This document shows, one piece after another, positions 11,917 through 62,506 of a stretch of 64,000 nucleotides of DNA. The translations under genes and the position numbers were made by a program. The notes beneath the pieces were generated by a model. It made no database searches and had not been told where the DNA came from. It was given only the letters and a program-made list of their open reading frames with translations. Each line of letters starts with the position of its first letter. The stretch's first letter is position 1. This DNA comes from Cladosporium halotolerans (lineage: Eukaryota). The DNA lies in the NCBI RefSeq assembly GCF_011745625.1, contig NW_027191477.1, positions 1 through 64,000 on the forward strand, read 5' to 3'.

Positions 11917-11993
11917 AGCAGAATGCGAATCCGGAAGATGCCAATTATCAATTTAAGACAGTATTTGTTTGGAATCAGCGGTGGAAGCTTGCT

Positions 11994-12984
11994 TTATGCC
12001 AAGAAATCGCCCGATGTCTCCTTCAGGATCAGTTGATACTCAGGGTCAAACTGACGATACATAACTTCTGGAGAACCAGTGCCATTCTTCGTATAAGCAG
12101 CCTCCTCATCGCCGACGAACGTCTTCTCTAAGCCCGTCGATGACCCAATCGAATGCGGAGCGACCGCAGCTTCTGTCAGCAGTTGGGTGTGGCAAGCTCT
12201 CTCCAAAGCAATGAAGAATGCTGCCGCTTCAGCGACTGTCCCGCCACATGTCAGCAATCCATGGTTCTGCATGATGAGGTTCTTGCGCGAAGATCCCAAA
12301 GCTTCAGCGACCCGCTTCCCTTCTTCTTTTGCGAAGACGACGCCACCAAAGTTTCCATAAATGGCCAGATCATTGTAGAACATGCAAGAATCTTCGAGCT
12401 TGTCAGAAGCCAATCTTTGCTGAGCAATGATGCACTTACCCTGATTGAGCATGTCGATGCCCCGACCGAAATTGCTCCAAGCCCTGCCATATGGGCTGTG
12501 TACGTGGCAAGCTGCGTTGAGATCAGGTCTCGCACGATGAATTGCTGCATGGATTATGAATCCCGCCGTGTTGACAGCCATATCTGCCCCGCCGATTCGG
12601 CGCCCTTCTTCATCAACGTGGACCATATCTGATACTCGCAAGAGGCCGAAATGGACACCATAAGGATTGATCCAGAATGTGTCCGGATCAATGGGATCTA
12701 GGCGGTGTCAGACATTAAGGGCAATAGGCATGTTTGGCACTTGCAAGAACATCGACGCACTTACCTCGTAGGCTTATATGCCCGCTACCGCCATCGGCAA
12801 AGCCTAGTTTTGAGAAGATACGAAACGCCCCCGCCATTTGCTCCAACTGCCAGCGTCTTTGAGCATCTTTGGAACTTGGCCACGGGATCCGGAATGATGC
12901 TTGTGTGGCTGACTGTTCATTGTCGATTTTTGTATCTTGCACGACTTCCATGTAGTTGGATGCGATGAGAGTTGTAGTGGCCAT
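11994..12984 (-). CDS. Class II aldolase/adducin-head domain protein; 3 exons
   Basis: GHISLRDP, FWINPYGVHF, IHAAIHRARPD, HVHSPYG and QNHG metal-binding His motifs; introns 12698-12764 and 12392-12439. Confidence 0.88.
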
Positions 12985-13108
12985 GACGCCCGATCCGTTG
13001 TGTAAGGCTGATTGATGGTGGTGCGTCTTTGCTGTCTTCGTTGCTCGAGAGCAACAGCTCGGTTCGATAGACTGACTTCAGCAGTCCGAGGCTGTCAACA
13101 TTCCCGTT

Positions 13109-13165
13109 CGGCGGAAGCCGTGAAACAAGATAGCAAGCTAGTTATGCCTCCTCGGGTTATGCCGA
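13109..13165. promoter_or_regulatory. Two CGG-N6-CCG Zn2Cys6 sites in the aldolase/HglS divergent promoter
   Basis: CGGCGGAAGCCG at 13109-13120 and TCGGGTTATGCCGA at 13152-13165. Confidence 0.65.
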
Positions 13166-13288
13166 TTCAAACTGGCTGGCGGCTGACAGGGCGAATCCCG
13201 AGCCCAGCACAAGCCGACCAACCGGCTACATCCGAAGTTCAGAACAGAGCACGCATGTAGACTACATGACAAGGCAAGCGCATGTCTT

Positions 13289-14842
13289 ATGCATAGTGCT
13301 TCGATTGAATTGCAACATCATCTGTTTACTCACGTTTACCCCGAACCAATACACGACCCCAAGCCGAACAATCTTCCAATGGCGTGCATACTATCAAACG
13401 AAACCACCAGCATGGGGACCGCCACGCAACCTCCAGCTGCTTTCATCAGTGCAGATCATGTTCGAACGATGTTTGCACATGCCATGTCAGCAATGTATAG
13501 ACGAGAAGTTCCTCTTTACGGGGATCTCGTCCAAATTGTTCAACAGACGAACTCGAGCAGCACGTCTGATCTACAGGCGCACGACACTTTACAAAGACTC
13601 TCCCTTGAGCGGCACGGTGCTATTCGACTGGGCACTGCTGAAGAACTTTGCACCATCAAGCGCTTGTTTCGGGTAATGGGTATGCATGCTGTTGGATATT
13701 ACGATCTATCAGTAGCCGGCTTGCCCATGCATGCCACGTGTTTCCGACCGATATGCGCGAAGTCTCTGGAGGCGAATCCATTCCGTATATTCACGACGTT
13801 GTTACGTCCTGAGATGCTTCAATCAGACGAATCCAAATCGATAGCAGAGGACTTGCTACGACATCGCAAGATTTTCACACCGGCTTTGTCACAGCTCCTG
13901 GACGCTGCGGAAGAGCAAGACGGCCGACTGAGCTTAGACCAGGTCGAGGTGCTCATCCCGGAGGCATTGTCAACTTTCAGTTGGCAGCCAGTGGCAGCTG
14001 CCAGCAGAGCACAGTATATGAAGTTATGCAACGAACATCCCATCCTGGCCGACATCGCCTGCTTTCGTAGCGCTCACATCAACCATCTGACACCACGTGT
14101 CCTGGACATCGATGCTGCCAAAACGGCCATGGAACTCGCTGAGATGCCAGTCAAAGCTTCAATCGAAGGTCCACCCAAAAGGAAATGGCCCATTTTGCTG
14201 CGGCAGACGAGCTTTCTAGCTCTGGAGGAACAAATAAGATTCAGAATCTGCGAACAGCAGCAACCTGAAGGCAACTTTGCAACTGGCTCGCACAAAGCAC
14301 GATTCGGCGAGATCGAAGAGCGGGGCGCAGCTGTGACCCCCAAAGGCCGCCAGCTTTACGATTTCCTCCTCAAAGAAGCGAGCTCTCGGTCTGCCAATGC
14401 CTCTTTCGCAGAAAAGGATCTGATCTTCTCAGAAGTCTTTCTCAAATTCCCGGATGTGTGGTCAGACATGCAAAGGGAAGGACTTGTCTATTGCGTTTAT
14501 AAACGCACCAGCAAAGCTCTTACAGAGGCCACCAAGTTATCAGCAGTGTCAAACACATCGAATACGCTAGCGGAACAATTGATAAGCCAAGGTTTAGTCC
14601 AGACATACCCGATAACCTATGAGGATTTCCTGCCCTTTTCAGCAGCCGGGATCTTCCAGTCAAATCTGCAAACAGCTCAAAAGGATGAACAACCGTCAAA
14701 CTTCAAAGCCATTTCAGATCAAGAAGGCTTTGAACAGTCTCTAGGGGGACCACTAATCAATTCAGATGATCTTTACCTGCAGATCGAGAATGACAGTCTT
14801 CGTGACTGCGTAGAGAGTCTGGGGATCAAATGCAGTTTCTAG
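13289..14842 (+). CDS. hglS: 2-oxoadipate dioxygenase/decarboxylase (HglS/YdcJ, DUF1338-type); true start may be 13379 or 13412
   Basis: Intronless ORF with family motifs SAMYRREVPLYG, ERHGAIRLG, GYYDLS, HATCFRP, NPFRIFTTLLR, HINHLTPRVLDID, IEGPP, ILLRQTSF, HKARFGEIEERG and PITYEDFLPFSAAGIFQSNL. Confidence 0.88.
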   Translation: MHSASIELQHHLFTHVYPEPIHDPKPNNLPMACILSNETTSMGTATQPPAAFISADHVRTMFAHAMSAMYRREVPLYGDLVQIVQQTNSSSTSDLQAHDTLQRLSLERHGAIRLGTAEELCTIKRLFRVMGMHAVGYYDLSVAGLPMHATCFRPICAKSLEANPFRIFTTLLRPEMLQSDESKSIAEDLLRHRKIFTPALSQLLDAAEEQDGRLSLDQVEVLIPEALSTFSWQPVAAASRAQYMKLCNEHPILADIACFRSAHINHLTPRVLDIDAAKTAMELAEMPVKASIEGPPKRKWPILLRQTSFLALEEQIRFRICEQQQPEGNFATGSHKARFGEIEERGAAVTPKGRQLYDFLLKEASSRSANASFAEKDLIFSEVFLKFPDVWSDMQREGLVYCVYKRTSKALTEATKLSAVSNTSNTLAEQLISQGLVQTYPITYEDFLPFSAAGIFQSNLQTAQKDEQPSNFKAISDQEGFEQSLGGPLINSDDLYLQIENDSLRDCVESLGIKCSF

Positions 14843-15036
14843 TTTCCTTTCCGAGATCCGTCGATTATGATTAGCTTAGCTCTAGAATTTCTTCACCCAG
14901 CTAGACCTCGATGCAAACAAGACTGATTGGATACCGGAGCTGTATCTGAAATGAACATAAGACTGTAGCGACGTCTGGGGCCGAGGGGTAGACGAAATGG
15001 GTTTTGCTAGATATATCCACACGTTTATTGAATCGT

Positions 15037-15873
15037 TCAAGATCGCCAAGAAGAGGGGACACGCTTAACCAGTCCTCCGTAGAACCAATTTACCATCGAG
15101 TACACATCGTAGACTTGGACCGACCTTCCCATCGACCTCTGGATGGCTTCAGCAAATGGAGGCATTTGCGTGCATTCCAACACAAGAACCGACATTGTTG
15201 GCCACTGTTGGATTAGTTGCTGAGCTGTAGTGACAAGCTCTGCCTCGATTGCTTTGTGATCGTACCCAGCATTTTGCTGGACTAAACGATGAAGGTGACC
15301 ACCAGTTGGGGCGCCAGCAATGTGTACTCGGTCCAAAAGTGCCGGATGAACTCCTGCGCTCTCAACATGCGCTAGCTGCAAGCGCTGAGAATCGTACGTC
15401 AGAATACCGAGTGTCTGGGAAGGCGCCATTATTGCCATTATGGATGGAATCTGCACAAGAGCAGAAGTGGCAATGGGGATTGGGAGGCGAGCGGCGAGTC
15501 TGAGAACGATATCAGTCCACCGATTACGAAGCACTTTGCCCGCCACGTACCTGCTCTGAGCCAATGCCAAAAAACCGCAACTAGTGATCAGCCCAACACA
15601 TCCTTTGTCGGCAAGCGTTTTTCCAGCATCGACAAAACGGTCTAGAAAAGCATCATCGTAATCTGAGCTCGTAACGACTTGAGACTCGGCAGTGCCAACA
15701 GCGAGCTCGCGTATGAGCGGAAAGTTCCAGGTCTCGTTCGTAAATGGGTCTCCAGGTGGTCTAGTGAAGAAGCACTCAATGGCGATAAACCCAAGAGGTG
15801 GTAACGAGGGATCAACTTGGTTCGAAGATTGCGGCTTTGCGGCATCTGCTTTTTTCGAAAGGACGTCTGACAT
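15037..15873 (-). CDS. Asp/Glu/hydantoin racemase superfamily protein; 2 exons
   Basis: RPPGDP..TWNFPL, two Cys motifs ITSCGFLA and VLECTQMPPF, and PIATSALVQ; in-frame intron 15500-15550. Confidence 0.8.
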   Translation of the reverse strand: MSDVLSKKADAAKPQSSNQVDPSLPPLGFIAIECFFTRPPGDPFTNETWNFPLIRELAVGTAESQVVTSSDYDDAFLDRFVDAGKTLADKGCVGLITSCGFLALAQSRYVAGKVLRNRWTDIVLRLAARLPIPIATSALVQIPSIMAIMAPSQTLGILTYDSQRLQLAHVESAGVHPALLDRVHIAGAPTGGHLHRLVQQNAGYDHKAIEAELVTTAQQLIQQWPTMSVLVLECTQMPPFAEAIQRSMGRSVQVYDVYSMVNWFYGGLVKRVPSSWRS

Positions 15874-16070
15874 GATGTTCTGTGTTCGGCCCAAGCTCCA
15901 GGTGGTATAATGCTCGATGAGACTGAGACATAGCTCATCTCAAAGACCACTTTGTCAGACGTCAAAGCTTTGCTATCCGGCGTCTAGTTTGTCATGCCTC
16001 TCAATCATGTACTAACGTAAACTCTATCGGTCTGCTATCAACCCCGCAAGTGGGTCTGTAGCAGGCTTGA

Positions 16071-16082
16071 CGGAGGAATCCG
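16071..16082. promoter_or_regulatory. CGG-N6-CCG site in the racemase/dehydrogenase divergent promoter
   Basis: ACGGAGGAATCCGT at 16070-16083. Confidence 0.65.
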
Positions 16083-16354
16083 TGGACCCTGCTCACTCGA
16101 ATGAGCTTCGCCCGGAAGAACGCGATACTGATCCACGCGCCCAGTAGAGCGGGGCCGAGGTCGGTTCATCACGGTCAACATTTACCAGTGTTTGCTTTTC
16201 GATGTAATATTTGCTACCTAGAGAAAGAATTCGGATTCTGTATCCTCAACGCGACCTTTCAACTCACATCAATTTCGTGCTGCAATTACTTGCACGGCCC
16301 GGACATCAACCGGACATCAAACAACTCATTCTCCACCATTGAACCAACACAGAA

Positions 16355-17440
16355 ATGACCGTAAGCCAGAGCGCACACCGGAAGCCACGCGTGGTCTCAC
16401 TCGGGCGGCCTGCATTCGTCGGCAAAGAATATCTCGACGAATTCTCAAAATCGTTCAACTTCTCAATACTGGAAGCCAAACATCGAGCTGAGACCAAACA
16501 GCTTCTACCATTGGACATTGAGAAAAATGGCCCCATTGATGCATTCGTGATTCGAATGGGTACGCCGCCATTTGAGCCTTTCGACGAAGATTTGCTCGGT
16601 GCTCTAACACCAGAATGCCAAATCATCACGTCTGCAAGTGCTGGTTTCAACGAGTTCGATGTGGAATGGATGACCCGGTCTGGGGTGTACTTCTGCAACA
16701 CTGTTGATGCCGTCGCCGAAGCTACGGCCGATATGGCAATCTTCTTGACGTTGGCAACTCTGCGCAACACTTGCAACGCGGAGAAAAGCCTCAAAAATGG
16801 TACTTGGAGGGGCGGTCTTGCACCAACTAGAGACCCGTCAAACCTGACCTTGGGCATTGTTGGAATGGGAGCCATCGGAAAAGTTTGTCAAATCCCAGTC
16901 CCGGAGCCGGTGCATTCGCTGACCTCAACGCAGTACCTTGCGAAAAAGGCCCTCGCGTTCAACATGAAGATTAAATACTACAACCGCAACCAACTCAGCC
17001 CCAAGCTGGAAGAAAGATACGAGGCTTCATACTGCTCCACCCTTCAGGAGTTGCTTGCCTGCTCCGACGTTGTCTCGATAAACTGCCCATACAACAAAGA
17101 CACCGAGGGATTGATTGGGCAGTCCGAATTTGAGGCAATGAAGGATGGAGCCTACTTCATCAACACCGCGCGCGGACCTATCGTTCAAGAAGAGGCTTTG
17201 AAGGCGGCGTTGGAGTCTGGCAAGGTCACAAGAGCAGGCTTGGATGTCTTCTGCAACGAGCCGAACATCGATCCGTGGTTTTTGGAGAGCGATGCATGCA
17301 TTGTGCAGCCTCACTTGGGTGGTCTGACGGACGCGGCCTTCCAACGTGCCGAAAGGGAATGCTTTGAGAATATCCGCGCGCTATTCACAATTGGCGTGCC
17401 GAACTCGCCCGTGAATGACTTATCCAGTCGTAGGAAGTAG
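16355..17440 (+). CDS. D-isomer-specific 2-hydroxyacid dehydrogenase; 2 exons
   Basis: GIVGMGAIG Rossmann motif, INTARG, LDVFCNEP and PHLGG (Arg/Glu/His catalytic set); in-frame intron 16883-16933. Confidence 0.9.
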   Translation: MTVSQSAHRKPRVVSLGRPAFVGKEYLDEFSKSFNFSILEAKHRAETKQLLPLDIEKNGPIDAFVIRMGTPPFEPFDEDLLGALTPECQIITSASAGFNEFDVEWMTRSGVYFCNTVDAVAEATADMAIFLTLATLRNTCNAEKSLKNGTWRGGLAPTRDPSNLTLGIVGMGAIGKVCQIPVPEPVHSLTSTQYLAKKALAFNMKIKYYNRNQLSPKLEERYEASYCSTLQELLACSDVVSINCPYNKDTEGLIGQSEFEAMKDGAYFINTARGPIVQEEALKAALESGKVTRAGLDVFCNEPNIDPWFLESDACIVQPHLGGLTDAAFQRAERECFENIRALFTIGVPNSPVNDLSSRRK

Positions 17441-17858
17441 TTCCTCTGTCCAATCGAATTCAACGTTTCGTACAACGTGTATACACTGCGTCCTTATCTT
17501 TTCCACTTATGACAATGTCCTCTTTCGTGTTCTGGACGCAGAACCTGTCCAATGCTTGTTGACTTGCGTCTACAAACGCGAGTGAATCTTATCATGCAAC
17601 ACCAGACTACCGCCAGATAGAAGATTGCAGTATAGACATGCGGAAGGATCTTGCTGACACTCGCATTGTATGAAGTATTCGCGTGATGGGACGGGTCTTA
17701 CGACGTAGGAATGCGCTCAAAGGAAAGTCATGCTGGCAACTGCTTGAAACACAGTTATATATCGTGCACTTGAAGTTTATACCAATCAGAAAGAATTAGT
17801 CTCAATCGCACCGCCGACGCTCGAAATTTGCAAGCCTCGATCCTCTCCGGCCATCAGA

Positions 17859-19647
17859 CTACACACTTTTGGCTGGCAGGTTCACAATCTGCTCCGCACT
17901 TTCGATGTCTTGACTGAAGTCTGTCAGCTCGTGGTCTATTCGAAAAGAGTCGGTAGACATACTCATGCTGTCTACCTTCGATGAGGCTGGCGTGTGTTCC
18001 TGCTTTCGAGCGGAAAGCCATGAACCAAGAGCCCTCGAAGATCCTATCCAGCTCCTCGAGGCTGTGTCCCGCGGTCTCCGCACCATGAGGAACACGTAGA
18101 CTAGAGCGATGAAGCACCATCCGGCGAAAAAGATGAAAGCACCCCAGTTGTCCATGCTGGAGAGGATGGAAGGCGTGCCGCGGCTGACTCCGAAGTAGAA
18201 CAGCCAATGGAATGTTTGAGAAAGGGAGGAGCCGAACGAGCGGAGATGGTTGGGCCAGACTTCAGAGCTGAAGACGTACGGTAGGACAAGAAGACCTTAG
18301 ATGCGTCAGTCAAGAGCATATGTCACAGCGGAAGCAGCTTACCGATAGTGTAACCGAAGCCGTGGATGAAGATCATGGCGATAGCGGCCTGACTTGATGA
18401 GTCTGAAACATCTCCTGCGGCTCTGTACTTCAAGAAAACACCGATGTAGATGTCCGAGATCATCTGGATGGTAATGCCGGTGAAAAGACTGCCACGACGT
18501 CCCAATGCGTCGATCAAGAAGAAACTTGCGATAAGGGTGAAGAAGAACTTCGCAAGAGAGTACATGGAGCTGAGAAAGAGTGAGTGTGATTTATCACCGA
18601 CCTCGCCTATGAGGCTCAAGATCGGGATGAAATAGCTCGTGACGCTGTTGGCGCCGGAGAGCTGTGCAAGCCCATACGAGATGCAAGTTTGCATCACGCG
18701 ACGAATGTTTGCTTTGACCGTGAATGTTTCGACAAAACAAGTGCGGGTGGCCTTCCAAGACACAACGTGGGTCATCACTCCAGTTCTAGCGCGTTCTTTT
18801 TCCAGCTCAGAGACGATCTGCTCGAACTCAGACGAGACTCTAGTACTGTCGGCACTCAGCCCTCGAAGGGCGGCCAGGTTCCGCTGTGCTTCTTCGATGC
18901 GCCCAGCACGCACGAGCCATCGAGGGGACTCGTATGCGAAGAAGGTGAGCCCGATGATGAGAGCCAGGTAGATGCATGGAGCGAAAAACACAATCTGATA
19001 CTGCAACTTGCTGGCAGCAATGTGAAGAGAGATTCCGTAAACGCAGATCGTGGATAAGAAAAGACTCAGGAGGAGAACGACGCTGAACCACACTGTGATC
19101 AGCCCTCGAATCTCGGTGGGTGCGATCTCGACAAGGCTGAGAGGGCCAGTGACGGTGTGAGCGCCAATGCCGAGTCCAGAAATGACGCGAGCAATGTATA
19201 GCGCAACGAGCGAGCCATTGCTAAAAGTAGCGATGATCTGACCCACAATCCAGACAGTGGTGTAGAGTCGCATTGACCAAAGGCGGCCGAGGGTGTCGTT
19301 GAGAAAGAAAGATACGAAAGCGCCTATGCCAGCACCGATGTATACGACGGAGATGAAGTTGGCGATTGCTTTTGCATTCGCGCCCGAGCTGATGTCAAAG
19401 GCGTCCGCAAAACCAGGCAGTGAAGGCACAAGCGAAGAAGAGCCTTGGTCCCACGCTGGTAATACAAATCAGCAGCGCGTCCGATGGTTCAAGCACAGGA
19501 GGTCTTACTAAGAGTGACTCCGCACATCGCGTAAATGGACGCGGAAAACAGGAGTGGCCAGTTGCATATCAGCTGGCGCGGAGTGTTGCGGACGGCATCG
19601 ATGTACCGAGCCAATGTCGAGTCTTTGAGAAGGTCTGGGACACCCAT
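17859..19647 (-). CDS. MFS sugar-porter family permease (quinate permease-like) with an apparent 1-nt frameshift after TM12
   Basis: WDQG, DTLGR, EIAPTEIRG, ESPRWL, QLSGANS and IDALGRR motifs over several exons. The ETAGHSLEELDRIF segment is out of frame at about 18080. Confidence 0.85.
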
Positions 19648-19962
19648 GCTGGATGTAGCTCGAGCCGGATGTGGAGATGTATAAGAAGACCGCGACCCCG
19701 AGCACGTGTGGAAAGGCGGAACAACGTTACAGCACGAGTGACCAAGAGCACCGAGGCGGGAGCCGAGGATACATTATAAGTCCATTGAAGGAGACAGCAT
19801 AGCCGTGCAAGATCGGTGGCAGAGTCTGGCCGGGGTTGGTGTGCCATCGGGCGCCGGCATCCCGAGTATCTCGACGGTTGCTACACCGCGCGCGGATGAG
19901 CTTTTCGCTATCGTCGCTACGAGGCCATCCTTGCATGCTTCCGGGGGCGGGGGTAGCGCCAT

Positions 19963-19976
19963 TCGGGGGAATCCGA
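19963..19976. promoter_or_regulatory. TCGG-N6-CCGA site in the MFS/regulator divergent promoter
   Basis: TCGGGGGAATCCGA at 19963-19976. Confidence 0.65.
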
Positions 19977-20347
19977 TATCGCCAAAGGCTGGCGATAGCT
20001 GATAGCAGACAGACCGAGGATGGCGGTGCTTTGGAAGGCGGCGAAGCTCGACGGCGCAGATCACAGACTGGACTGAGATGTGCGCAACGGTCAGATATTG
20101 GGCTGGGCTGCGCGCAGAACTTCCCTTTGGCATTGGGTTGTGTGTCTGCGCAGTCGACGACACTGCCGGGACTGATGGGCGGACAGGCAGAGCGCGGCCA
20201 TGTCTGCTCAGCTGATTCTTGCCTGACTACAGAGCCACCAGCGCGATCATCGCAAGTGCCTCGGCATCCTCAGTGTCCGCAAGCCGTGGCCCTCATGCTC
20301 ACCACATCCCGTCCTCGCCACGCCTTCAACGTCGCGGCACACTCATC

Positions 20348-22703
20348 ATGGGTGACGCTCGCTCTCCGCCGGCCAAACGGTCGCGTGTCGGGGACCGCAC
20401 GACGCTCGCGTGCATAAGGTGTAAGCAGAAGAAGCTTAAGGTCGGTGGTTGTTTTCCTTCAGAAGCCGACGTTGCGCGCTTGACAGGGCTGACGGCGACG
20501 CAAGTGTGATGGCGCCAGTCCAAGGTGTCAGAATTGTGCAAAGAGTGGGCAACAAGGTAGGGCAGCTCGCCGTGGCACTCCGGATCTCCCACCTTTAGCC
20601 AACATCGTGACTGAATCGTCAAGCAGATTGCCTGATCGAGGATCCCGCCACCGGCCTGCAGCGCCCGCGAGACTACATGCAAGCCCTAGAGTCGCGCGTG
20701 GCATACCTCGAGGGTCTCCTTCAAGAAGCGAGACCAGAGATTGCTGCGGACCACATGGGTTCCAATACTCAGCGAGCACTGGCTGGCGGCATCCCGTCGC
20801 CGCGTGAGGCCAACGCTACCGGAATGCTTGCCTCGCCGCCCATGCAAGGAGACTTGCTCGCGCAATCGCAGCTTCCTGGTCCGCGAGATTCTCATATGGA
20901 GCACTCCAGACCTGGAGACACCGCTAGGTCTGATCCAGTGTCCTCGGAAGTTGCTCTCCTGTGCGTCAACGCTTCCGGGCGTGAGCCGCAATACCTCGGT
21001 CATTCGTCCGCGTTGTCATTTGCACATGTTGCGACTCAGGCCATGGGTCTGGAGGATAGCTCTACAAGCCAGAATTTGTGGAGCGGCAGTCAGCCTGGCG
21101 ATAACAGCTCGAGATCCGCTACAGCCCTTGAGCTTAAGCATCCCTCGCCAAACGTTGCTGAAGCACTCTCTCGGGCTTATTTCGAAAACATCCACTTGCA
21201 GTACCCTTTTCTACACCAGCCTACTTTCAATGACTGGCAACAGAAATGCTGGGAAGCTAATCTCAATGGTACCTTGTCTGACGCTGGGCACGTACCACTC
21301 TTCTTCGTAACCATGGTGTACGCCATCGGCTCCATCGTCCTCAGCCACGGGCTTTCCGATGAAGCCAAGGACTTATATACCATGGCCATGCGATATTTCC
21401 CACCAATCCTGAACACTGATACATTAGAATCTGTACAAGCTCTCATTGCTTGTGCAGTCTTCTCGATTCGCTCACCGGTCGGTGCAAGTCTCTGGATGAT
21501 CTCGGGCATGGCTGTCCGCAAGTCCATTGGGCTTGGATACCATCGGAGCTTTACTGCGTTACGAAGGGCTCCTGGTTCTTTGTCAACTGAGATGGCCAAG
21601 AGATGCTTTTGGGTCGCCTACGACATCGACAGAGTAGCATCATTCGTATTGGGTCGACCAACTGCCATCTCCGACCAGGCGATTGACGCTGAGGTATGCG
21701 AAACTTGAAGACTCCCCAAAAGGAAAAACAATTGCCGTCTCCACACCAGTCTGCTGACCTATGCCTGTGTTAGCTTCCACTCGACATCAACGACGATGAC
21801 CTTGCAGACGGACAAGTACCTCGGAATCTCCGATTCCACAGCACTGAGCCGCCGACCACGATGACCGGCGCTATCCACGTGATCAATTTGCGACGCCTCT
21901 GGTCAAAGATCCACGGCTTCCTATATGGGGATTCCGCAGCTTGTCCACGTGGCTTCAATATAGCAGACTCTACGATTTACGATCTAAGGCAGGAACTCGA
22001 AGAATGGCGGGCTTCTACGCCCCCACAGATACAAGTCCAGTCCAGCGGAGCCAAACCGCTCTCTGTGTACACGTCGCGGGAGTGGTTTACGCTGGCGTAC
22101 AATCATTCCATTCTACTCCTCTACCGACCTTTGATCAACGACACTGCGGATCAAGCCATGCAAGCACAATCCCAGCCTGGACTTGTGGACATGGCTTTCG
22201 AAGAATGCTACATGAACGCACAGCAGATGTGCATGACGTATCGCAGTCTCTACCAACAACCGTCCATCCAGTTCACCTGGGGCAGCTTGCACATTCTGTT
22301 CCTCGGCGGAATGACATACCTGTACTGCCTGTGGCGCTCCGCAAAGATCAGGCAGACAGCCAGGCTGAAAGACGTCATGGGCACCTGCATGGCATGCTCG
22401 ATGGTGCTGGTGATCATAGCTGAGAGGTGGAGGATGGCGACAGCGTACCGTGACATGTTCGAGAAGCTGGCCGAGCGCACCATCAACATGCTCGAGCTGG
22501 ACATGTCGCGACGGAAGCAGGCGAGCAGCGGTGCCGAGGCTCCTACATCAGGGTTCGACGGGTTCTCCGACGACGCTTTGCCTTTCGATCAGTGGATACT
22601 GGATCTCGATAATGTTGGCGTGCCGCCCGAAAGCGACTGGCTCGTCCAGGAGCTTCTTGAAGGGGTGCGGAATTTTGAGCCGAACGGCTTTGGTGGACTG
22701 TAG
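20348..22703 (+). CDS. Zn(II)2Cys6 transcription factor with fungal_trans domain, PPR1/UaY-like; 4 exons
   Basis: Spliced CIRCKQKKLKCDGASPRCQNCAKSGQQDC (introns 20441-20504 and 20557-20626), then LIEDPATGLQRPRDYMQALESRV. Middle region has YFENIHLQYPFLH, LGYHR and RCFWVAYDIDR...LGRP. Third intron at about 21694-21773. Confidence 0.9.
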
Positions 22704-23010
22704 CATAGTGTATTTGAAGATTTGCTCCACGAATCTGTATTGGAATCGTTTCGACCTTCATGTTGGCAAGTTCACAAGACGCCCAATCATCCGGAGCGTC
22801 CTGTTACTGTATCCGGCCAAGTCAGTTGAGAATTGCAATTTATCATTTTCTCTCTTCGAGATCACAAGGGTCCGGATGTCGGAACACTTGGCAACCACTC
22901 CGACTACATCCCAAGCAGGGTTATTCCGCATGGTCAACTCCCGGTATTAACACAAAAGCGCGGAGCTTGCGTGCAGCCTTCGGGTTCGCGCGTTGCAGAT
23001 GCGGGGGCGA

Positions 23011-23037
23011 TGGGTTCCTCCGAACCGGAGGAATTCG
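23011..23037. promoter_or_regulatory. Back-to-back CGGAGGAA near-consensus sites upstream of the flavoenzyme
   Basis: Palindrome TTCCTCCG-AAC-CGGAGGAA gives CGGAGGAATTCG (+) and CGGAGGAACCCA (-), each one mismatch from CGG-N6-CCG. Confidence 0.55.
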
Positions 23038-23410
23038 CCGAACCCCTCTTCAGCCCCCTCTGCGATTCCGGCCCACTCTCCTGCTGAACAGATAAGCTTT
23101 CACCTGGTCTTCTGTTTGATAGGCGAGACCGGCGTAAGCCGAGCGCGATGGCAGAATACATGCGAGAGATGATAGTTGCTCTTTTGACCGAACATGTGCT
23201 TCCGGCGAGTTGCATCGGCAATGTAGGCTATCGTGCCGTCTTGCTGTGAGTTACGGTGCAAAGAAGATCATCCTCGGCAGTTCTCCAAACTACAACTTCG
23301 CAGGCCTCACTAGCAAGCATCTGCATTGAGAGCACGGGAAGCGAATCATATTTCCGATTTACCACGGACACTCAACAGCTTCACAGAGCTTTCGAGAACT
23401 GTGATTCGAG

Positions 23411-24913
23411 ATGTCGACGACTGACGAGATCGTTGAAACGCCACCCATGATGAACGAGCCCATCATCATCGTGGGTGCCGGTGTATTTGGGCTCAGCACA
23501 GCAATCCATCTGGCAAAGCGAGGCTACAAGGACGTGACGGTGTACGATCGTCACTCCTACGACGACTCGCAGTTTTCATACTTCAAGGGCGCCGACTCTG
23601 CATCTGCGGACATCAACAAGATCATCCGGTCAGCCTATGGTGGCGTCAGCATCTACCAAGACCTGTCGCTAGAGGCAATTGAAGGCTGGAAAGAGTGGAA
23701 CGAGAGATTGCGCAAAGGCGAAGACTTGCTTTCAGGTCTGAGCAGAGGCGACCAAGTCTTTGTACCCAACGGCAACTTGAGCATGACAGACACGAACGAG
23801 ATCACCGAATTTGACCAAGCCACCATTACTAGCATGGAAGCTGCTGGATATCCTGGAACTCAACTCAACGTCACGGATGCTCGAGACCGGAAGATTGCAG
23901 CCGAGAAAGGCTTCGGCTTGGCCATTGATCCTTTCGGACGGGAGAGAAGAGGCCAGCCAAACACCGCAGTACTAGACACTACTGGCGGTACGGCCGTTGC
24001 GGACAAGGCTTGTCGCTTCGCTCTGCATGAAGCGCGCAGTCTAGGCGTCAACTTTGTTTTGCATCCTTCAAAAGGTGCATTCAAATGCCTCACCTACCAT
24101 TCCAACGCTCGAAGACGGGTGACTGGCATCACCACTAGCGATGGACGGTCGCACCCAGCATGCATGACCATCATGGCATGCGGTGCATGGACACCTTCCC
24201 TCGTCCCCGAAATGGACGGCTTGTGTGAAGCGACAGCGGGCACCGTGGCATTGATCAAGATACCAAGGGAATCACCACTTTGGGATCGCTTCAGCCCCGA
24301 CAACTTCCCGTCATGGCAGTGGAACATGCGGAATGGTTCTGAAGGCGGACTTTACGGATTCGCACGCAATGAAGAGGGTTGGCTGAAGATCGGGTACCGA
24401 GGCCTCAAATACACCAACCCCATCAGCCAGGCGGACAGCATTCAACGCAGCGTGCCCGTGACTCGATGGACACCCGATAGAAAAGGCGGAGAGCGATTGA
24501 CATCGGCCCCTGAGCATGCTTTGAAGGTGATCGAAAGGTTTCTTCAGAATTACTTGCCAGAGCTCGGCGCAGCCGGACTAAAGATCTCGAAAACTCGCAT
24601 CTGCTGGTACAACGACAGCTTCGACAATCATTTGGTAATTGATCGCGTTCCTGAAGTGGGCGGGCTGATGGTAGCTACGGGTGATAGCGGGCACGCGTTC
24701 AAGTACCTTCCCGTCCTCGGGTCATATATTGTCGATGTGATGGAAAGGCGAGGGATAGACAGGGCTTGCATTAGAGCCTGGCAATGGCGTAGTCTTGGAG
24801 TTGAAACTCCGCAAAATGTTTTGATGGAAGGGAGCGCAAGTCCGAGGTCGTTGCAAAAGGTGCCTCTTGTTGCAGAAGAAAATCTTTCTGCGCCTCTGCG
24901 AGCTCGGCTCTGA
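23411..24913 (+). CDS. FAD-dependent amine oxidase (sarcosine / L-pipecolate / fructosyl-amino-acid oxidase family)
   Basis: IIVGAGVFGLSTA, SASADINKIIRSAYG, RICWY (covalent-FAD Cys position) and ATGDSGHAFKYLPVLG; intronless, 500 aa. Confidence 0.88.
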   Translation: MSTTDEIVETPPMMNEPIIIVGAGVFGLSTAIHLAKRGYKDVTVYDRHSYDDSQFSYFKGADSASADINKIIRSAYGGVSIYQDLSLEAIEGWKEWNERLRKGEDLLSGLSRGDQVFVPNGNLSMTDTNEITEFDQATITSMEAAGYPGTQLNVTDARDRKIAAEKGFGLAIDPFGRERRGQPNTAVLDTTGGTAVADKACRFALHEARSLGVNFVLHPSKGAFKCLTYHSNARRRVTGITTSDGRSHPACMTIMACGAWTPSLVPEMDGLCEATAGTVALIKIPRESPLWDRFSPDNFPSWQWNMRNGSEGGLYGFARNEEGWLKIGYRGLKYTNPISQADSIQRSVPVTRWTPDRKGGERLTSAPEHALKVIERFLQNYLPELGAAGLKISKTRICWYNDSFDNHLVIDRVPEVGGLMVATGDSGHAFKYLPVLGSYIVDVMERRGIDRACIRAWQWRSLGVETPQNVLMEGSASPRSLQKVPLVAEENLSAPLRARL

Positions 24914-25485
24914 TGTCGCGCGTTGTATCCTGTACCAACAACTTACACCTGCGAATAAGGCTGCTATGCAGCCAATCCAGCCAATCATGATGACAGTGTA
25001 ATCCTTAATAGGGCGAGTACATTACAATGCAGAAGGACTACGTGCGTATCTCGGCGCTCGGCCAATCCGATGTCTCAGCACGTGAGCGTGCTCTCGTGGG
25101 AATCTTCTAGTCACTCATCTTTGCTTTGTCAGCATGTCATGATCAGTATTCCATCCCAGCTTTACACCAAAGAACAAGACGAGTATGTGGTAAGACGTGT
25201 GGGGATTCTGGTACGATACATCAGCACAGTCAAGTGATTAGTGATCAAATCCATTTCGGAGGGTTTCACCACTAATGACGCGATTCGTACCCACTGATGA
25301 GTGATCACCAATTAGAAAGACATCATAGCATAAAGCGATCACCGAGAAGACATTTGGGTGGAATCGGATGCGCAGTCTAGTCTTGCAAGCTTCTGATTAC
25401 GGCTTGTCGCATCTACACCAGACAGTATCCGCATGCGCATCTGCCCAGACCTTACGACCGAGCTCTCGAATCTCACAAACACAAA

Positions 25486-25932
25486 ATGCCTCTCTGGCTA
25501 ATTTACCATCCAACAGGCACTTTCGAGGATGTGGCCTCGAAAGAGTCGTTCGCCAAAGACATCACAAGTGCGTACGTCGGATGGGGTCTGCCAGCGTTCT
25601 ACGTGATCGTGAATTTCATCAAACTTACCGGAACCGACATGTACATCGGCGGACGACCGAACACTGGAAACCCATTCATCCGCCTGCGAGTTGACCACAT
25701 TGCGGTCCGCCTAGACGATGATGATGCTGCATACAACCGTGTCACGGCTAGCATCGACAAGATTCTCAAGCCGCACATCGAGGACAAGGGATACGACTGG
25801 GAGTATCACATCGACGAGACGGAGAGAAGGCTGTGGAAGATCCAGGGCCTTGCACCGCCGCCCTTCAAGAGCGAGGAGGAGAAGGTGTGGATTGAGCAGA
25901 ACAAACCGTCGCCGTGGGAGAATTCGGAGTAG
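25486..25932 (+). CDS. Putative oxalocrotonate tautomerase (cis-CaaD-like, Pro-1 enzyme)
   Basis: 148 aa beginning M-P-LWLIYHP, with ITSAY..GLPAFYV, DHIA and DWEYHIDETERRLWKIQGL.PP. Confidence 0.82.
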   Translation: MPLWLIYHPTGTFEDVASKESFAKDITSAYVGWGLPAFYVIVNFIKLTGTDMYIGGRPNTGNPFIRLRVDHIAVRLDDDDAAYNRVTASIDKILKPHIEDKGYDWEYHIDETERRLWKIQGLAPPPFKSEEEKVWIEQNKPSPWENSE

Positions 25933-27484
25933 AGCCCTGCAAATCAGAGCTGCGCAGGAAGCTTCTCCTGTGGCGTTGACTCCGTCTTGGGCCGCGGGCT
26001 ACACAGCCTCAGATCATCCAGCGGTCTTTACCTGTTTTTGTTCTAGAATACCGGTAGCAGTAGTAAAGCCGTTGAGCGCGATGAATCAGTATATTTTATC
26101 CATTTCACGAAGCGGCTGCTGAGGACTGGCAGTATATATAGCTGCAAATGGCACAGTTTCAAGATGACGATAAACTGCCTCAATGGCGCTCTCTCAGCTC
26201 GTGTATGTGGCCAATGGCGGTTTGCGCTACGGTATAAGGTAAGCCAAAAGGCCCGCAGTCAGGGCGGAAGCTCCTCTGAAGTTCAACAATCCTTCGACAA
26301 AGCTTGAACAGCATTCAGGTCGGAGTGGCGGTGCAGAGGAATACGAAGGACGAGAAGAACGACGACCTTTTTGAACACGAGGATACCACAAGACATCGCT
26401 GCGTAGACAGACATTTATATATACACTTGTACGGAATACTCAGGTCTTATTGAGATTCCCAGCTTACTCACATGTCCTTTGATCTCCGACAGCAACGCGC
26501 AACATCATCTCCGACGAGGGACCAGATTGACAAACCATTCAAAATCCCACGAGTTCCTTGCGACACAATGAGAACCGGAGTCTGTTCCAAAGCCCTGACT
26601 CTTCCGGTAGCCCTGGGTGTGGCTATCGCGGGTCCCGACACCACCAGCAGCGACCCAACGAGTGCCCTTGTCTATCGCGACACAAGTGGAAAGACCGCTT
26701 GCCTGGGCGGCCAGGACTCTGGAAGTCGTCATGTCGCCCCCTTGGCGCGTGTCTAATTCCGATTTCAACAAAATGCGAGAAGGCTCGATCATTCATGTCG
26801 GCAATACCTGCGATGAGTATGGGAACGCTCTTGGACTCGGCGATCCGATGGTCCGGACCTTCCGACTGAGCACGTAGGTCTTACGCCACAAGAGATTGGC
26901 AATGATCGGACGATGATTTGGCATTACCTTCCTGCATGGCCGGCCTTTGCTATGTGTCGAGGAAGCACGCATGACCAGTCAGCTACTCCCAACCGCCGCG
27001 ATGCGATCTCAACTTCACTTGGGCGTCAAGTAGGGAGGGCGGTTCTCCAAGTCCGCTCAGGATACTCCATACCAAGCGGTTACAGCGAACCAGCGATTTG
27101 CGCAAGGTTCACGGCATGCATAGTAAGAGGGAGCCAACTTTGCCAGGAAAGTCTGTGCGAGTCCGCTGAGGGCCGATGGCCGGCGCGTAAACGAGCTGGT
27201 GCGGTGGACGGGTTCGGCGAATCCAGGTGAGGTGAGACGGGCTTCCCCCGACCGCGGCGGCCGAGATTGTTGCAATTGGTCCAGAGACGGCGGATATGAG
27301 GTGACTGAGTCGGATCAGCGAGGTTAGCATCGACGTCCCTACTGCAGCGGTAGCGCAAAAAGATTTGCAAATTGAAGAAGTGAGTATGGTGTATTCTACG
27401 CTCGCAAAAACTTGGTGTCTCACGAGTAGACGCCGACCACCACAACATGTACCCTTGCTACAAATACATTGGACGCGAACGACC

Positions 27485-30400
27485 TCACGTGCCCGTACCT
27501 CCCAGATCTTGCTCCTTGACAAACCTGCTGTAAACGCCCTTTCTCTGCAACAACTCCGCGTGCGAGCCGCTCTCTACCAGCTTTCCAGCTTGCAAGACAA
27601 AGATCTTGTCCGCTTTCTGAATCGTACTCAGCCGGTGTGCTACAGCAATCGTAGTCCTGCCCTCAGCAGCCTTATCGAGAGCCTCTTGCACCAGGTGCTC
27701 CGACTCCGAGTCCAGCGCGCTCGTCGCCTCGTCGAGAAGGAGAATCTTAGGATTGCGGAGTAAAGTCCTCGCGATGGCGATACGTTGTCGCTGTCCACCT
27801 GAGAGCTGAACGCCCTTGTTGCCCAGAGTAGTATTGTAGCCATCCGGGAGAGACGAGATCAAGCTCTCGATGTTGGCGTCTTGGCAGGCTTTGGCGATGC
27901 GCTCGTCCGAGACTTCCTCGTGGAGAGGCAAACCCATGAGCAGGTTCTGGCGGATGGTCCCAGAGAACAGCACAGGTTCTTGAGCGACGACGGAAAGTTG
28001 AGTGCGGAGAATGTTGGCCTCGAGGGAGCTGAGATCTGTGCCGTCCACGGTGATTGATCCGGAGGTAGGGTAATAAAGTCTAGACATCAGGCTGATGACT
28101 GTGGACTTGCCGCAACCCGAGTGTCCGACGAGAGCTACAAAGCTTCCCGCTGGGATGTCTAGGCTGAGACCGTCAAGCACAATTGCTGGGCGTCCAGGGT
28201 ACGAAAAGCGGATGTCGTTAATCTGTATGTGGCCCTCCAGACTCTTGTTGCTACCGTCAATCTTCTCGCCAGAAGCCTTTTTCTCTGTCGAATCGTCGCC
28301 CAGTAGATCGATGAGTCTTTCCGCAGCGACCCTTGTCTTGGTGATGTCTGGGCCGAAACCGAAGAAATTGGCCGCCGACTGCGCACCAAAGATTACTGCA
28401 GCAAGGCCTGTCACAGGATGTTAGCTTCTAAACGCCGTCACTCTCATTCATGGACCACCTTACAGATGAAGAACTGCTCAGCTCCATACTCTCCCGAGCC
28501 GATCAATTTACCGCCGTACCAAAAGACCAAGGCGAAAATGAGGAACTGCGAGGCTTGCGAGATGCCGAAGAAGAATGAAGAGGTGATGACCCATCTCATA
28601 CTCTTGCGCTCAGCATCGACAAGCTGATCCCGGTAGGTTTGCCAGACCGTCGACTGCTTTGACAGCGATGCGACCGTCCTGATTCCAGAAATGTACTCCG
28701 ATGCCGAGGCCGCAGAGTCCTCGAACGTCTTCTTCGCCATCACTTGGAACTTTGCCAACAACGAGACTCGAATGAATCCGCTGACAAGAATGACGGGCAC
28801 AACTGATATACATACCAACGCAAGCTTCCAGCCAATGGCAAGAGCCAGAATCATGCCACCGAAGAGGGTGACCGCACCGTCAATCAAGGTACCGAGTGTC
28901 GCGCCCGAAATAGCTGCCGCGTTGTCAGGCTCTGTAGCCAACATGGAAGTCAAAGCACCGGCCGAGTGTTGGGGCGTGTCAAACCATTCCGCCTCCTGTC
29001 TTAGACTGAAGCCAAATATGGTGTTCCTCAACCTTGCAGTAAGTCTCGCCGACGCAATCCCAAAAAGGTAGCCTCTGCCTGCAAGTGCGAAGAAAGCCAC
29101 GAAGCCCACGAGCAGATACATGCCAGCCCAGAAGTTGATCTTGAGGCCGACGAAATCCGGGGCAACAATCGCGAGGATAGATTTGGCGAACAGAACAGCG
29201 CCCACGGGCTGGACCATGCCTGATATGACTGACAACGCGCAGCCGCCGATTAGAAGCCACTTTTCTTGCCGATTGTAGTGGTAGAGGAACTTGCTGACCT
29301 CCCACCATGAGTGCTTCTTCCCAGCACCTGTTCCCTTGTCAAGATCATTGTTGTCGTCCATATCGGTTGCTGACAGGGTTGTTGAAGCCCGTCGGAGGCT
29401 TGTCCCCAGCTTGTCGTGAGTCCTAGTCCGAGAGACGGCAGGCGACAGCTCCGCCTCGGTAATCTCTGCCTCTCCGAACTTCTCGGAGTCTTTCGCCTCG
29501 CAGTCACCTCCAGTGTCCTTCGATAGGACTTGTGCGTCTACGAGCTTCTTGTAAGTACCTCCGAGAGCAAGGAGTTCGCTATGAGTCCCCTGTTCGCACA
29601 CCTGTCCACCAAGGATCACGGCGATAGAGTCCGCATCGCGGATAGTCGACAAGCGATGCGCGATCATGATAGTGGTGCGATGGCGACTTGCTTCTTGGAT
29701 AGCAGCTTGAACGTAGCGCTCGCTTTCGGTGTCCAGAGCGGATGTCGCTTCGTCAAACAGTAGGATCTTAGGGTCGGAGATCAGAGCACGAGCAATAGCG
29801 ATGCGTTGTCGTTGTCCACCGGATAGCAGCACGCCACGCTCGCCAACTGAAGTCTTGTAGCCTCGCGGCAGTCGTGACACAAAGTCGTGAGCGTAAGCCT
29901 GCTTTGCGGCCTGAATGACAGCTTCGTCAACCTGCTGTTCAGTGTATTGCTTTCTCTGAACATCCGACAGGCCAAAGGCAATGTTGTCGCGCACGCTTAG
30001 ACTGAACAAAACAGGCTCCTGGCTCACGACGGATATCTGTCGCCTTAGACTGCCGAGATTGTACTTGGTGATGTCGACGCCATCGACGGTGATGGTTCCT
30101 TGCACTGGTGTGTAGAAACGCTGAAGCAGCCCGACGACCGTTGACTTTCCGCCACCGCTTGGCCCTACAAGAGCAGTTGTTTTGCCGGCAGGTATGTGTA
30201 GGTTGTAGTCTGAGAGCGCATTGACCGTGATCCTAGATGGATAGACGTGTCGCACGTCTCTGAACTCGATCTCGCCTTGAATGTTGCCAGCGTCCGAGCC
30301 TTGCATGTCTGTAGCGTCGATGGGTGACACCCTATCAATAGCGCGGAAGATTGTAGCTGCAGCAGTCGTGCCAGCGTTGAAGGCCTGGAAGTTTGGCGCG

Positions 30401-62474: not shown

Positions 62475-62506
<32 letters not shown>

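Follow-up and report, generated by a model that had tools for sequence, protein, structure and literature searches.

In Pseudomonas putida, D-lysine and 2-aminoadipate are degraded along a pathway that comprises AmaA, AmaB, PP_4108, HglS (PP_5260) and PP_4493, and homologues of HglS are present in plants, e.g., FLO7 and AT1G07040. HglS converts 2-oxoadipate to D-2-hydroxyglutarate in an Fe(II)- and O2-dependent reaction, and PP_4493 has been linked to glycolate dehydrogenases in a preprint. Non-heme iron oxidative decarboxylases with the fold of class II aldolases are found in TqaM, which acts in fungal 2-aminoisobutyrate biosynthesis, and in NovR/CloR of aminocoumarin biosynthesis. CloR takes a 2-oxo acid to a 2-hydroxy acid and further to a shorter acid in two steps. 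At the level of gene organization, the quinate (qut) and nicotinate (hxn) genes of Aspergillus nidulans form catabolic clusters, each with a pathway-specific Zn2Cys6 factor and a permease. In a study on HglS, fungal lysine catabolism past 2-oxoadipate is presented as largely uncharacterized, and the role of the fungal HglS homologues is raised as a question (Thompson et al., 2020, PMC7286885). We have analyzed 64,000 nucleotides from Cladosporium halotolerans (GCF_011745625.1, contig NW_027191477.1, positions 1 to 64,000; the window in what follows), in which an earlier note, made from the sequence alone, had proposed a self-regulated catabolic cluster of eight genes around an HglS homologue at positions 11,994 to 25,932. 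The species belongs to the Dothideomycetes (Cladosporiales).

Seven of these eight genes (ALD, HglS, RAC, D2HDH, MFS, TF and OXI) are a conserved unit. We tentatively favor the reading that they form a conserved catabolic cluster of Pezizomycotina, which is controlled by its own transcription factor, is centered on HglS and operates via 2-oxoadipate. The eight genes are real and lie where the earlier note had placed them, as judged from Pfam matches and open reading frames (ORFs):

11994..12984, minus strand: ALD, TqaM/NovR-type protein with the class II aldolase fold, 291 aa; introns 12698-12764 and 12392-12439 (the latter predicted)
13379..14842, plus strand: HglS, predicted 2-oxoadipate dioxygenase/decarboxylase, 487 aa; intronless
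15037..15873, minus strand: RAC, two-Cys member of the PRK07475 subfamily within the Asp/Glu-racemase superfamily, 261 aa; one intron, 15500-15550
16355..17440, plus strand: D2HDH, D-isomer-specific 2-hydroxyacid dehydrogenase, 344 aa; intron 16883-16933 (runs X2 and X7)
17882..19647, minus strand: MFS, sugar-porter-type transporter of the major facilitator superfamily, 538 aa; three introns, 17914-17962, 18296-18342 and 19456-19508 (runs X2 and X7)
20348..22703, plus strand: TF, transcription factor of the Zn2Cys6 type, 713 aa; three introns, 20441-20504, 20557-20626 and 21694-21773 (runs X2 and X7)
23411..24913, plus strand: OXI, MSOX/fructosyl-amine-oxidase-type FAD amine oxidase, 500 aa; C-terminus -ARL
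25486..25932, plus strand: Tautomerase_3 protein, a neighbor only, 148 aa; Pro as residue 2 (Pro-1 once Met is removed)

The gene models have been built from stop-to-stop ORFs, followed by a Pfam scan of 12 ORF pieces, nine of which gave family matches. These are Aldolase_II (E 2e-37) for ALD, HGLS (PF07063, E 2e-142) over the full profile length (1-386 of 386) for HglS, a weak Asp_Glu_race match for RAC, 2-Hacid_dh_C and 2-Hacid_dh for D2HDH, Sugar_tr (E 2e-49) for two exons of MFS, Fungal_trans (E 3e-23) for TF, DAO for OXI and Tautomerase_3 (E 4e-56) for the tautomerase, and they agree with the dehydrogenase and the MFS permease named in the earlier note. The N-terminal exon of ALD, exon 1 of TF and the C-terminal exon of TF, three of the 12 pieces, had no Pfam match. 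Six genes are arranged in three divergent pairs, ALD/HglS, RAC/D2HDH and MFS/TF, and the oxidase and the tautomerase come next on the plus strand. The intergenic gaps of ∼200-700 nt are too small for any further gene, and the description of eight contiguous genes with no unrelated one between them has proved right.

Compared with the P. putida pathway, the fungal locus has in common an HglS that is homologous to the P. putida enzyme (6w1g, E 1e-112) and has the same metal and specificity residues, a linked flavin oxidase of the DAO fold, and a dehydrogenase that possibly takes D-2-hydroxyglutarate to 2-oxoglutarate. In contrast, neither a piperideine-6-carboxylate (P6C) dehydrogenase nor an aminotransferase is contained in the fungal cluster, and D2HDH belongs to the NAD-type D-2-hydroxyacid dehydrogenases and is not a homologue of PP_4493. 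The fungal cluster adds a racemase-fold enzyme of the PRK07475 family and a TqaM-like oxygenase; moreover, it is eukaryotic, with its own Zn2Cys6 factor and a probably peroxisomal step. Catabolic clusters of fungi that include their own Zn2Cys6 factor are known already as a kind, and so is the HglS step. New is the combination of HglS with a TqaM-like oxygenase, of a PRK07475 enzyme with a D-2-hydroxyacid dehydrogenase, and of both with a peroxisomal MSOX-type oxidase. In full-text literature searches, which left most subscription journals outside their coverage, no description of a fungal HglS cluster or of this gene set has been found, in line with the view of the earlier note that no fungal cluster of such content had been characterized.

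The conservation of the unit has been followed in metagenome contigs, which were scanned with 22 aligned HglS sequences of fungi; the best 80 loci were kept and searched by tblastn with all eight window proteins (E 1e-5). Most of them (75) look bacterial, with an HglS 43-48% identical to that of the window, and five are fungal-like. Two of the latter, L003 on a contig of 147 kb and L005 on one of 47 kb, encode an HglS 50% identical to the window's, and each holds seven of the eight genes inside ∼11 kb, in an order that differs both from the window and between the two. A third, L001 (6.2 kb), has ALD, HglS, RAC and D2HDH in the order of the window, L004 has HglS and TF, and L002 (2 kb) HglS alone. 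Through every rearrangement ALD/HglS and RAC/D2HDH have stayed head-to-head, in the window as well as in L001, L003 and L005. The flanks of L003 (PHD-finger, MAGE-domain and chalcone-isomerase-like genes) and of L005 (MFS_1 and a HET-domain gene) are unlike each other and unlike those of the window. In the 75 bacterial HglS loci no homologue of ALD, OXI, D2HDH, MFS, TF or the tautomerase was found at E 1e-5, and a RAC-like gene stands beside HglS in one of them (L052).

Linkage is also supported indirectly by named genomes, as judged from the lists of OXI, HglS and RAC homologues (best 120 clusters each). In Pestalotiopsis fici the locus tags PFICI_13935, 13936 and 13938 belong to OXI, HglS and RAC, respectively, and near-adjacent tags occur in Thyridium curvatum (E0L32_008929, 008934), Colletotrichum filicis (CSPX01_14936, 14942), Boeremia exigua (OPT61_g1658, g1662) and an Onygenales sp. 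(FQN51_002900, 002904). These tags span Dothideomycetes, Sordariomycetes and Eurotiomycetes. By hand count, at least 28 named species have two or three of OXI, HglS and RAC on contigs of equal size, which is a weak proxy for linkage. The linkage is not universal, since HglS and RAC of Talaromyces verruculosus are 29 tags apart.

A further trait common to the cluster members has been found in their promoters. Counting the 8-mers that the cluster intergenic regions of the window, L001, L003 and L005 have in common has led to an inverted CGG-N6-CCG site, CGGAGGAATCCG, and CGG-N6-CCG is the type of site bound by Zn2Cys6 factors. The copies in the window are the following:

13109..13120, plus strand: CGGCGGAAGCCG, motif in the divergent ALD/HglS promoter
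16071..16082, plus strand: CGGAGGAATCCG, motif in the divergent RAC/D2HDH promoter
19964..19975, plus strand: CGGGGGAATCCG, motif in the divergent MFS/TF promoter
23011-23022, minus strand: weaker motif copy upstream of OXI
23026..23037, plus strand: CGGAGGAATTCG, motif copy with one mismatch upstream of OXI

Within the 64 kb of the window the degenerate form CGGNGGAANCCG is matched exactly three times, once in each divergent promoter, vs 0.16 expected, and none of 100 shuffles has reached this number. In the relatives, all seven matches lie between cluster gene pairs (two in L001, two in L003, three in L005), and the exact 12-mer CGGAGGAATCCG is found in the RAC/D2HDH intergenic region of the window and of all three relatives. 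Elsewhere, 21 matches have been counted in 18 of the 158 other loci. TF, after splicing, has the full Zn2Cys6 pattern C-X2-C-X6-C-X6-C-X2-C-X7-C, as expected for the regulator of the earlier note, and we infer that this factor binds CGGNGGAANCCG; the seven genes are probably co-regulated by it. The earlier proposal of a real and probably self-regulated cluster is borne out by the conserved synteny and by the occurrence of the site in every divergent promoter. In its permease, its Zn2Cys6 activator, its enzymes in divergent pairs and the CGG-type repeats in their common promoters, the locus resembles the qut and hxn clusters, from which it differs in its set of enzymes and in the predicted class of substrate.

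The reading of the cluster depends first of all on HglS. The protein reaches 524.4 bits with the NCBIfam HglS equivalog, just below the cut-off of 550 of that bacterial model. The metal triad of P. putida HglS, His70, His226 and Glu294, corresponds to H79, H236 and E311, which are invariant in 22 of 22 fungal sequences, while Arg74 and Ser403 correspond to R83 and S421, and Val402 to Phe420. In the work on the P. putida enzyme, Arg74 is described as binding the distal carboxylate and thereby setting the specificity for 2-oxoadipate, which was the sole substrate among seven 2-oxo acids, and the R74A variant as inactive; the contact of Val402 is reported to be a backbone contact, and the Arg to be kept in 100% of the fungal homologues that have the metal triad (Thompson et al., 2020, PMC7286885). 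HglS of the window keeps every residue that is tied to the turnover of 2-oxoadipate, its activity being predicted here, and the emphasis of the earlier note on HglS and 2-oxoadipate is upheld in this respect. Concerning the sequence itself, no exact copy of the 487-aa protein is present among the matches listed, the best one being 97% identical and derived from a Logan assembly; the deposited annotation may model the HglS gene otherwise or omit it.

The partner of HglS in the first divergent pair, ALD, had been called a class II aldolase. This name describes its fold and likely not its chemistry. Its best match in the PDB is 4xxf (2.6e-44), labeled as fuculose-1-phosphate aldolase, followed by TqaM (9m09, 3.6e-42), 9n43 and NovR (9ryg, 5.8e-35). 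Alignment with E. coli FucA has shown that the metal residues His92, His94 and His155 are kept, also in the orthologues of L003 and L005, that Glu73 is replaced by Gly and that the region of Tyr113 is deleted; Asn29, Thr43, Ser71 and Ser72 are changed to His, Tyr, Thr and Ala, respectively. We take Glu73 and Tyr113 to be the catalytic residues of FucA, the latter four to bind the phosphate and the three His to bind Zn, and with the first two gone and the phosphate site changed, aldolase chemistry of the FucA type is unlikely for ALD. The residues by which TqaM holds its substrate, S72-G73-H74, N123 and Q166-D167, are conserved in ALD together with the three His, according to a phmmer alignment with 9m09 (GGSGHIS in exon 1; the chain numbering of 9m09 is offset by 1 from the residue numbers of PMC13351049). 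In that review of 2026, the carboxylate and the hydroxyl of the substrate are bound to the metal with the help of S72-G73-H74, N123 and Q166, and TqaM and NovR are O2-dependent decarboxylases of (2R)-2-hydroxy acids, with TqaM taking 2R-hydroxy acids only (PMC13351049). D-2-hydroxyglutarate is the 2R isomer, and the product of HglS therefore falls in the stereo series that TqaM-type enzymes accept. ALD groups with TqaM and NovR, to which it is homologous, and is predicted to be an oxidative decarboxylase that would provide a second possible fate for D-2-hydroxyglutarate. ALD and HglS would then split over two proteins the two steps that CloR takes. Unlike TqaM and NovR, ALD stands in a cluster of catabolic and not biosynthetic appearance, and V and Q take the place of W271 and E275, respectively, which bind the beta-amino group in TqaM. 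An Arg in the C-terminal pocket of ALD, considered as a conserved residue that might bind a distal carboxylate, has been rejected, as the Arg of MYRQF is replaced by Trp in L003 and by Met in L005.

RAC scores 24 bits (unspliced ORF) with Pfam Asp_Glu_race vs a gathering score of 31, and 213.5 bits with PRK07475 of NCBIfam (NF005679) vs a cut-off of 231, with its bacterial relatives at 290-307 bits; NCBIfam names this family "hypothetical protein". The AlphaFold model of RAC (pLDDT 92.2) has been compared by Foldseek, and the best matches were glutamate racemases, arylmalonate decarboxylase and hydantoin racemase, besides aspartate and allantoin racemases (E 4e-8 to 1e-5, TM 0.44-0.65, identity 10-19%). 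Two cysteines, C99 (TSCGF) and C217 (ECTQM), one in each half of the protein, are invariant in 34 of 34 aligned homologues and, by analogy, presumably catalytic. The score, the structural matches and the cysteines agree with the two-Cys racemase of the earlier note. The spliced protein is identical over 261 of 261 residues to C. halotolerans WHR41_06263 (P0122 in the protein collection). Some RAC homologues carry the label "DMSP lyase" (dimethylsulfoniopropionate lyase), which presumably reflects an unconfirmed similarity to Alma1; it was taken as an automatic name and not used.

The bacterial relatives of RAC have been surveyed by scanning bacterial genomes with the RAC alignment, and the best 80 loci (34-40% identity) were considered. 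Their hosts are Bradyrhizobium as well as Rhizobium, Brucella, Bordetella, Achromobacter, Roseomonas-like genera and Nitratireductor. Gene content was annotated by Pfam and NCBIfam in nine of these loci, in which tight operons have been observed. The operon of L086 (Bradyrhizobium, 2482-8690) consists of genes for a 2-hydroxyacid dehydrogenase, an Asp-aminotransferase-like protein, an enzyme dependent on thiamine diphosphate (TPP; PRK08199), a DadA-like flavoenzyme and RAC; similar ones exist in L082, L099, L146 and L138, with a polar-amino-acid ABC (ATP-binding cassette) transporter added in L082 (Rhizobium) and L099 (Brucella). An operon of this type appears suited to the breakdown of an acidic amino acid in both its enantiomeric forms. 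Among the 64 RAC loci of at least 12 kb, a DadA-like gene (within 8 kb) was counted in 54, a TPP enzyme in 47, a 2-hydroxyacid dehydrogenase and a binding protein in 29 each, an aminotransferase in 21 and HglS in one, numbers that are inflated and non-independent, since ∼35 of the 80 loci are from Bradyrhizobium. The sole HglS case is Methylobacterium terricola (L081), where an HglS-aminotransferase pair lies 5.5 kb from the RAC relative. Seen from the side of HglS, the 40 bacterial loci of at least 12 kb have a DadA-like gene, an aminotransferase and a TPP enzyme in one case each and a 2-hydroxyacid dehydrogenase in none.

What recurs in bacteria and in the fungal cluster is a trio of racemase-fold enzyme, FAD amine dehydrogenase (or oxidase) and D-2-hydroxyacid dehydrogenase, followed by an enzyme that decarboxylates 2-oxo acids; the fungal counterpart is built from non-orthologous parts. 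The bacterial operons differ from the fungal cluster in that their flavoenzyme is DadA-like and not MSOX-like, that they have an ABC transporter system, and that their decarboxylating enzyme is TPP-dependent (47 of 64) rather than HglS (one of 64). This context supports RAC as an amino-acid racemase that would feed a flavoenzyme, and it does not name the amino acid. Three loci of Proteobacteria deserve mention as observations of their own. L099 (Brucella pituitosa) has two PRK07475 paralogues (7980-8690 and 11469-12191) that flank the ABC transporter and the DadA-like gene, L144 (6612-9673) has a PRK07475 gene beside an M20 enzyme of the N-carbamoyl-amino-acid/allantoate amidohydrolase type and an amidase, and in L117 (2347-8695) such a gene is near a hydantoinase B/oxoprolinase. 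The latter two hint that carbamoyl amino acids or cyclic amides, and not free amino acids, may be the substrates of some PRK07475 members.

OXI has been assigned to the MSOX/fructosyl-amine-oxidase family, as in the earlier note, by its PDB matches, which are fructosyl amine and peptide oxidases (∼2e-27, the best), FsqB (6gg2) and MSOX; the amadoriases were matched in two or three short pieces. The known substrates of this family are secondary amines, among them sarcosine, pipecolate, saccharopine and fructosyl amines. OXI has the N-terminal GxGxxG (IIIVGAGVFG), and the Cys of its RICWYND aligns with Cys335 of amadoriase II (3djd), which we take to be the site of covalent FAD attachment. It stays below the NCBIfam cut-offs of the characterized members N-methyl-L-tryptophan oxidase (106 vs 257 bits) and soxA_mon (67 vs 480). 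The protein ends in ARL, as does its L003 orthologue, and that of L005 ends in AKL. The OXI step is probably peroxisomal, other than the remaining steps, because a tail of the peroxisomal targeting signal 1 (PTS1) type, [SAC][KRH][LM], ends 80 of 120 OXI homologues vs one of 120 for HglS and one of 120 for RAC (best 120 each). The exact sequence of OXI is contained in the protein collection (P0241). D2HDH matches best a fungal glyoxylate reductase (3wnv, 2e-51) and the D-mandelate dehydrogenase of Rhodotorula (2w2k, 1e-37), and the subfamily of MFS has been assigned from Pfam Sugar_tr only.

Taken together, the cluster most likely breaks down a lysine-derived amino acid via 2-oxoadipate. The Zn2Cys6 factor would bind CGGNGGAANCCG in the bidirectional promoters and switch the set on, and the sugar-porter-type MFS would import the substrate. 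RAC would racemize an acidic amino acid, most likely 2-aminoadipate, one form of which the peroxisomal MSOX-type OXI would oxidize to 2-oxoadipate and H2O2, a sequence for which neither an aldehyde dehydrogenase nor an aminotransferase would be needed. HglS would turn 2-oxoadipate and O2 into D-(R)-2-hydroxyglutarate and CO2. For the removal of this product two ways are conceivable, which may both be used: conversion to 2-oxoglutarate by D2HDH, or oxidative decarboxylation to succinate and CO2 by ALD as a TqaM/NovR-like iron enzyme. We prefer 2-aminoadipate as the entry compound, itself inferred, because the cluster becomes self-sufficient with it and RAC gains a role. The order of import, racemization, oxidation, 2-oxo acid and D-2-hydroxyglutarate that the earlier note had laid out remains the best fit; its option of a sugar-amino-acid substrate does not, as discussed below.

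A number of points weigh against this assignment. Enzyme activities, inducer and substrate are all predicted from sequence, and the fungal synteny is based on three metagenome contigs together with the locus-tag and equal-contig proxies. Enzymes of the MSOX family are not known to act on primary D-amino acids, and a transporter of the sugar-porter type is an unusual kind of amino-acid permease. The flavin partner of RAC in bacteria is DadA-like, with an OXI-like gene in one of the 80 RAC loci only. Furthermore, a 2-hydroxyacid dehydrogenase accompanies RAC in 29 of the 64 bacterial loci and HglS does so in one, and D2HDH may not remove D-2-hydroxyglutarate, because in bacteria the dehydrogenase is found with RAC mostly without HglS. 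D2HDH and the TqaM-like ALD would also be redundant for one intermediate, and the exchanges at W271 and E275 tell that the substrate of ALD differs from that of TqaM and do not tell which one it is. A more specific proposal is that HglS and ALD are a cofactor-free, O2-driven pair for two-step chain-shortening (2-oxoadipate to (R)-2-hydroxyglutarate to succinate), which a new kind of racemase for 2-aminoadipate, from the PRK07475 family, would feed together with an MSOX-type oxidase that uses 2-aminoadipate in the peroxisome; we regard it as doubtful.

Among the competing explanations, the main rival, close to the view of the earlier note, is a pipecolate/saccharopine route. The peroxisomal OXI would here be an L-pipecolate or L-saccharopine oxidase that yields piperideine-6-carboxylate (2-aminoadipate semialdehyde), from which 2-oxoadipate would be reached through an aldehyde dehydrogenase and an aminotransferase encoded outside the cluster, and HglS and the dehydrogenase would form 2-oxoglutarate as in P. 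putida. Such a route suits the membership of OXI in the MSOX family, its PTS1 tail and the automatic names of its homologues ("sarcosine oxidase/L-pipecolate oxidase", "L-saccharopine oxidase", "L-pipecolate oxidase"), and a review places the fungal saccharopine oxidase in peroxisomes (PMC9854754). However, the cluster has otherwise been kept whole in three rearranged versions and would nevertheless lack two essential enzymes, and RAC and ALD would have no role although the head-to-head pairing of each with a pathway gene is conserved. We consider this route rather unlikely, and the breakdown of 2-aminoadipate is kept as the preferred reading.

The high rank of fructosyl amine and peptide oxidases among the PDB matches of OXI, as well as the Sugar_tr match of the transporter, could also be understood if MFS imported an Amadori compound (a fructosyl amino acid) or an opine-like secondary amine, which OXI would split into a carbonyl compound and an amino acid, with the other enzymes processing the pieces. 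The similarity of OXI to the amadoriases is low, however, being confined to short pieces with a whole-protein E of ∼2e-27, and no kinase, deglycase or sugar-acid enzyme has been detected in the cluster by the Pfam scan. In addition, glucosone or the fragments of simple opines do not yield 2-oxoadipate, whose distal carboxylate is bound by the residues Arg74 and Ser403 kept in HglS; the sugar-amino-acid substrate suggested by the earlier note fits poorly with this specificity, and we judge such a pathway improbable. The homology of ALD to the biosynthetic TqaM and NovR brings up a small biosynthetic cluster whose product would be an uncommon amino or hydroxy acid, much as TqaM serves to make 2-aminoisobutyrate, and with MFS as the exporter, and a Zn2Cys6 factor and an MFS protein are generally typical of fungal biosynthetic clusters, too. 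Yet the conserved unit lacks a nonribosomal peptide synthetase, a polyketide synthase, a terpene synthase, an Fe/2OG (2-oxoglutarate) oxygenase and a HAD (haloacid dehalogenase) partner, HglS has been catabolic wherever tested, an H2O2-forming peroxisomal oxidase is typical of catabolism, and the spread over Dothideomycetes, Sordariomycetes and Eurotiomycetes suits a nutrient pathway better, which makes a biosynthetic role highly improbable. Finally, genes of unrelated function might be neighbors by chance, and nothing more speaks for this than the richness of fungal genomes in enzyme genes of these kinds. The arrangement is beyond chance, because the synteny is conserved and a promoter motif is common to the members: seven genes stay together in rearranged order within differing flanks, the motif is confined to the cluster promoters, and locus tags adjoin in named genomes. 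Chance adjacency is refuted by synteny and motif and its probability is negligible.

The gene models are in part backed by RNA. Contigs of four public runs, taken from a list in which no run is recorded as RNA, have been compared with positions 11500-26500, and those of two runs, X2 and X7, are 95-99% identical to the window. They skip short GT..AG segments and therefore derive from spliced RNA. Nine introns in five genes have been confirmed by them (one each in ALD, RAC and D2HDH, three each in MFS and TF), and the covered genes are thus transcribed and spliced; the first intron of ALD (12698-12764) and that of RAC were taken from a spliced contig of run X2. The second ALD intron, an in-frame segment of 48 nt at 12392-12439, is a prediction. 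The segment is bounded by GT..AG, is missing in the orthologues of L003 and L005 and has a stop codon inside in L001, and a gap of 16 residues is found at its position in five of the five best PDB alignments of ALD. HglS is intronless, so its run contigs are indistinguishable from DNA and have not been taken as expression evidence, and the same holds for the oxidase and the tautomerase, which have zero cover in run X2. The spliced X2 contig over TF (20170-22694) has a word depth of ∼400 vs 2-48 over its neighbors; contig depth cannot rank genes, and the value only hints that TF may be well expressed in the condition sampled.

The eighth gene, the tautomerase, matches RhCC of Rhodococcus (4u5p, 3e-33) and an A. 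fumigatus protein (3c6v, 2e-32) in the PDB. A homologue was found in none of the 80 HglS metagenome loci, including L003 and L005, and upstream of the gene there is no copy of the motif with up to two mismatches. It has been rejected as a cluster member and is a neighbor outside the conserved unit, so that of the eight-gene cluster in the earlier note seven genes stand. The genes further out appear unrelated, with a two-pore K+ channel on the left and, on the right, an ABC transporter and then an NLR-like gene with ankyrin repeats. The full-size ABC transporter (ABC_membrane and two ABC_tran; 27485-31524, minus strand) lies directly right of the tautomerase and was not seen next to the clusters of L003 and L005. 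The NLR-like gene (33138-37010, minus strand) combines an N-terminal part of the NPHP3_N/NACHT type with many ankyrin repeats and is unrelated to the cluster, as is a SLATT_fungal-domain protein at 4483-6261 (minus strand). A hydantoinase B/oxoprolinase gene (61914-63998, minus strand), which runs off the end of the window 36 kb from the cluster, has not been counted as linked.

For the question of what HglS does in fungal lysine catabolism, the cluster offers a defined, conserved and probably co-regulated set of genes, which includes a candidate regulator, a putative binding motif, a transporter and a probable compartment. It also gives a testable physiological role to two little-known families, the PRK07475 proteins and the TqaM/NovR-like oxygenases outside secondary metabolism, and it suggests a possible new disposal route for D-2-hydroxyglutarate. 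If HglS and ALD do act as a chain-shortening pair, their module would link the breakdown of lysine and aminoadipate to the tricarboxylic acid cycle without coenzyme A, TPP or NAD, and the same racemase module would account for the PRK07475 operons of Bradyrhizobium and other Proteobacteria.

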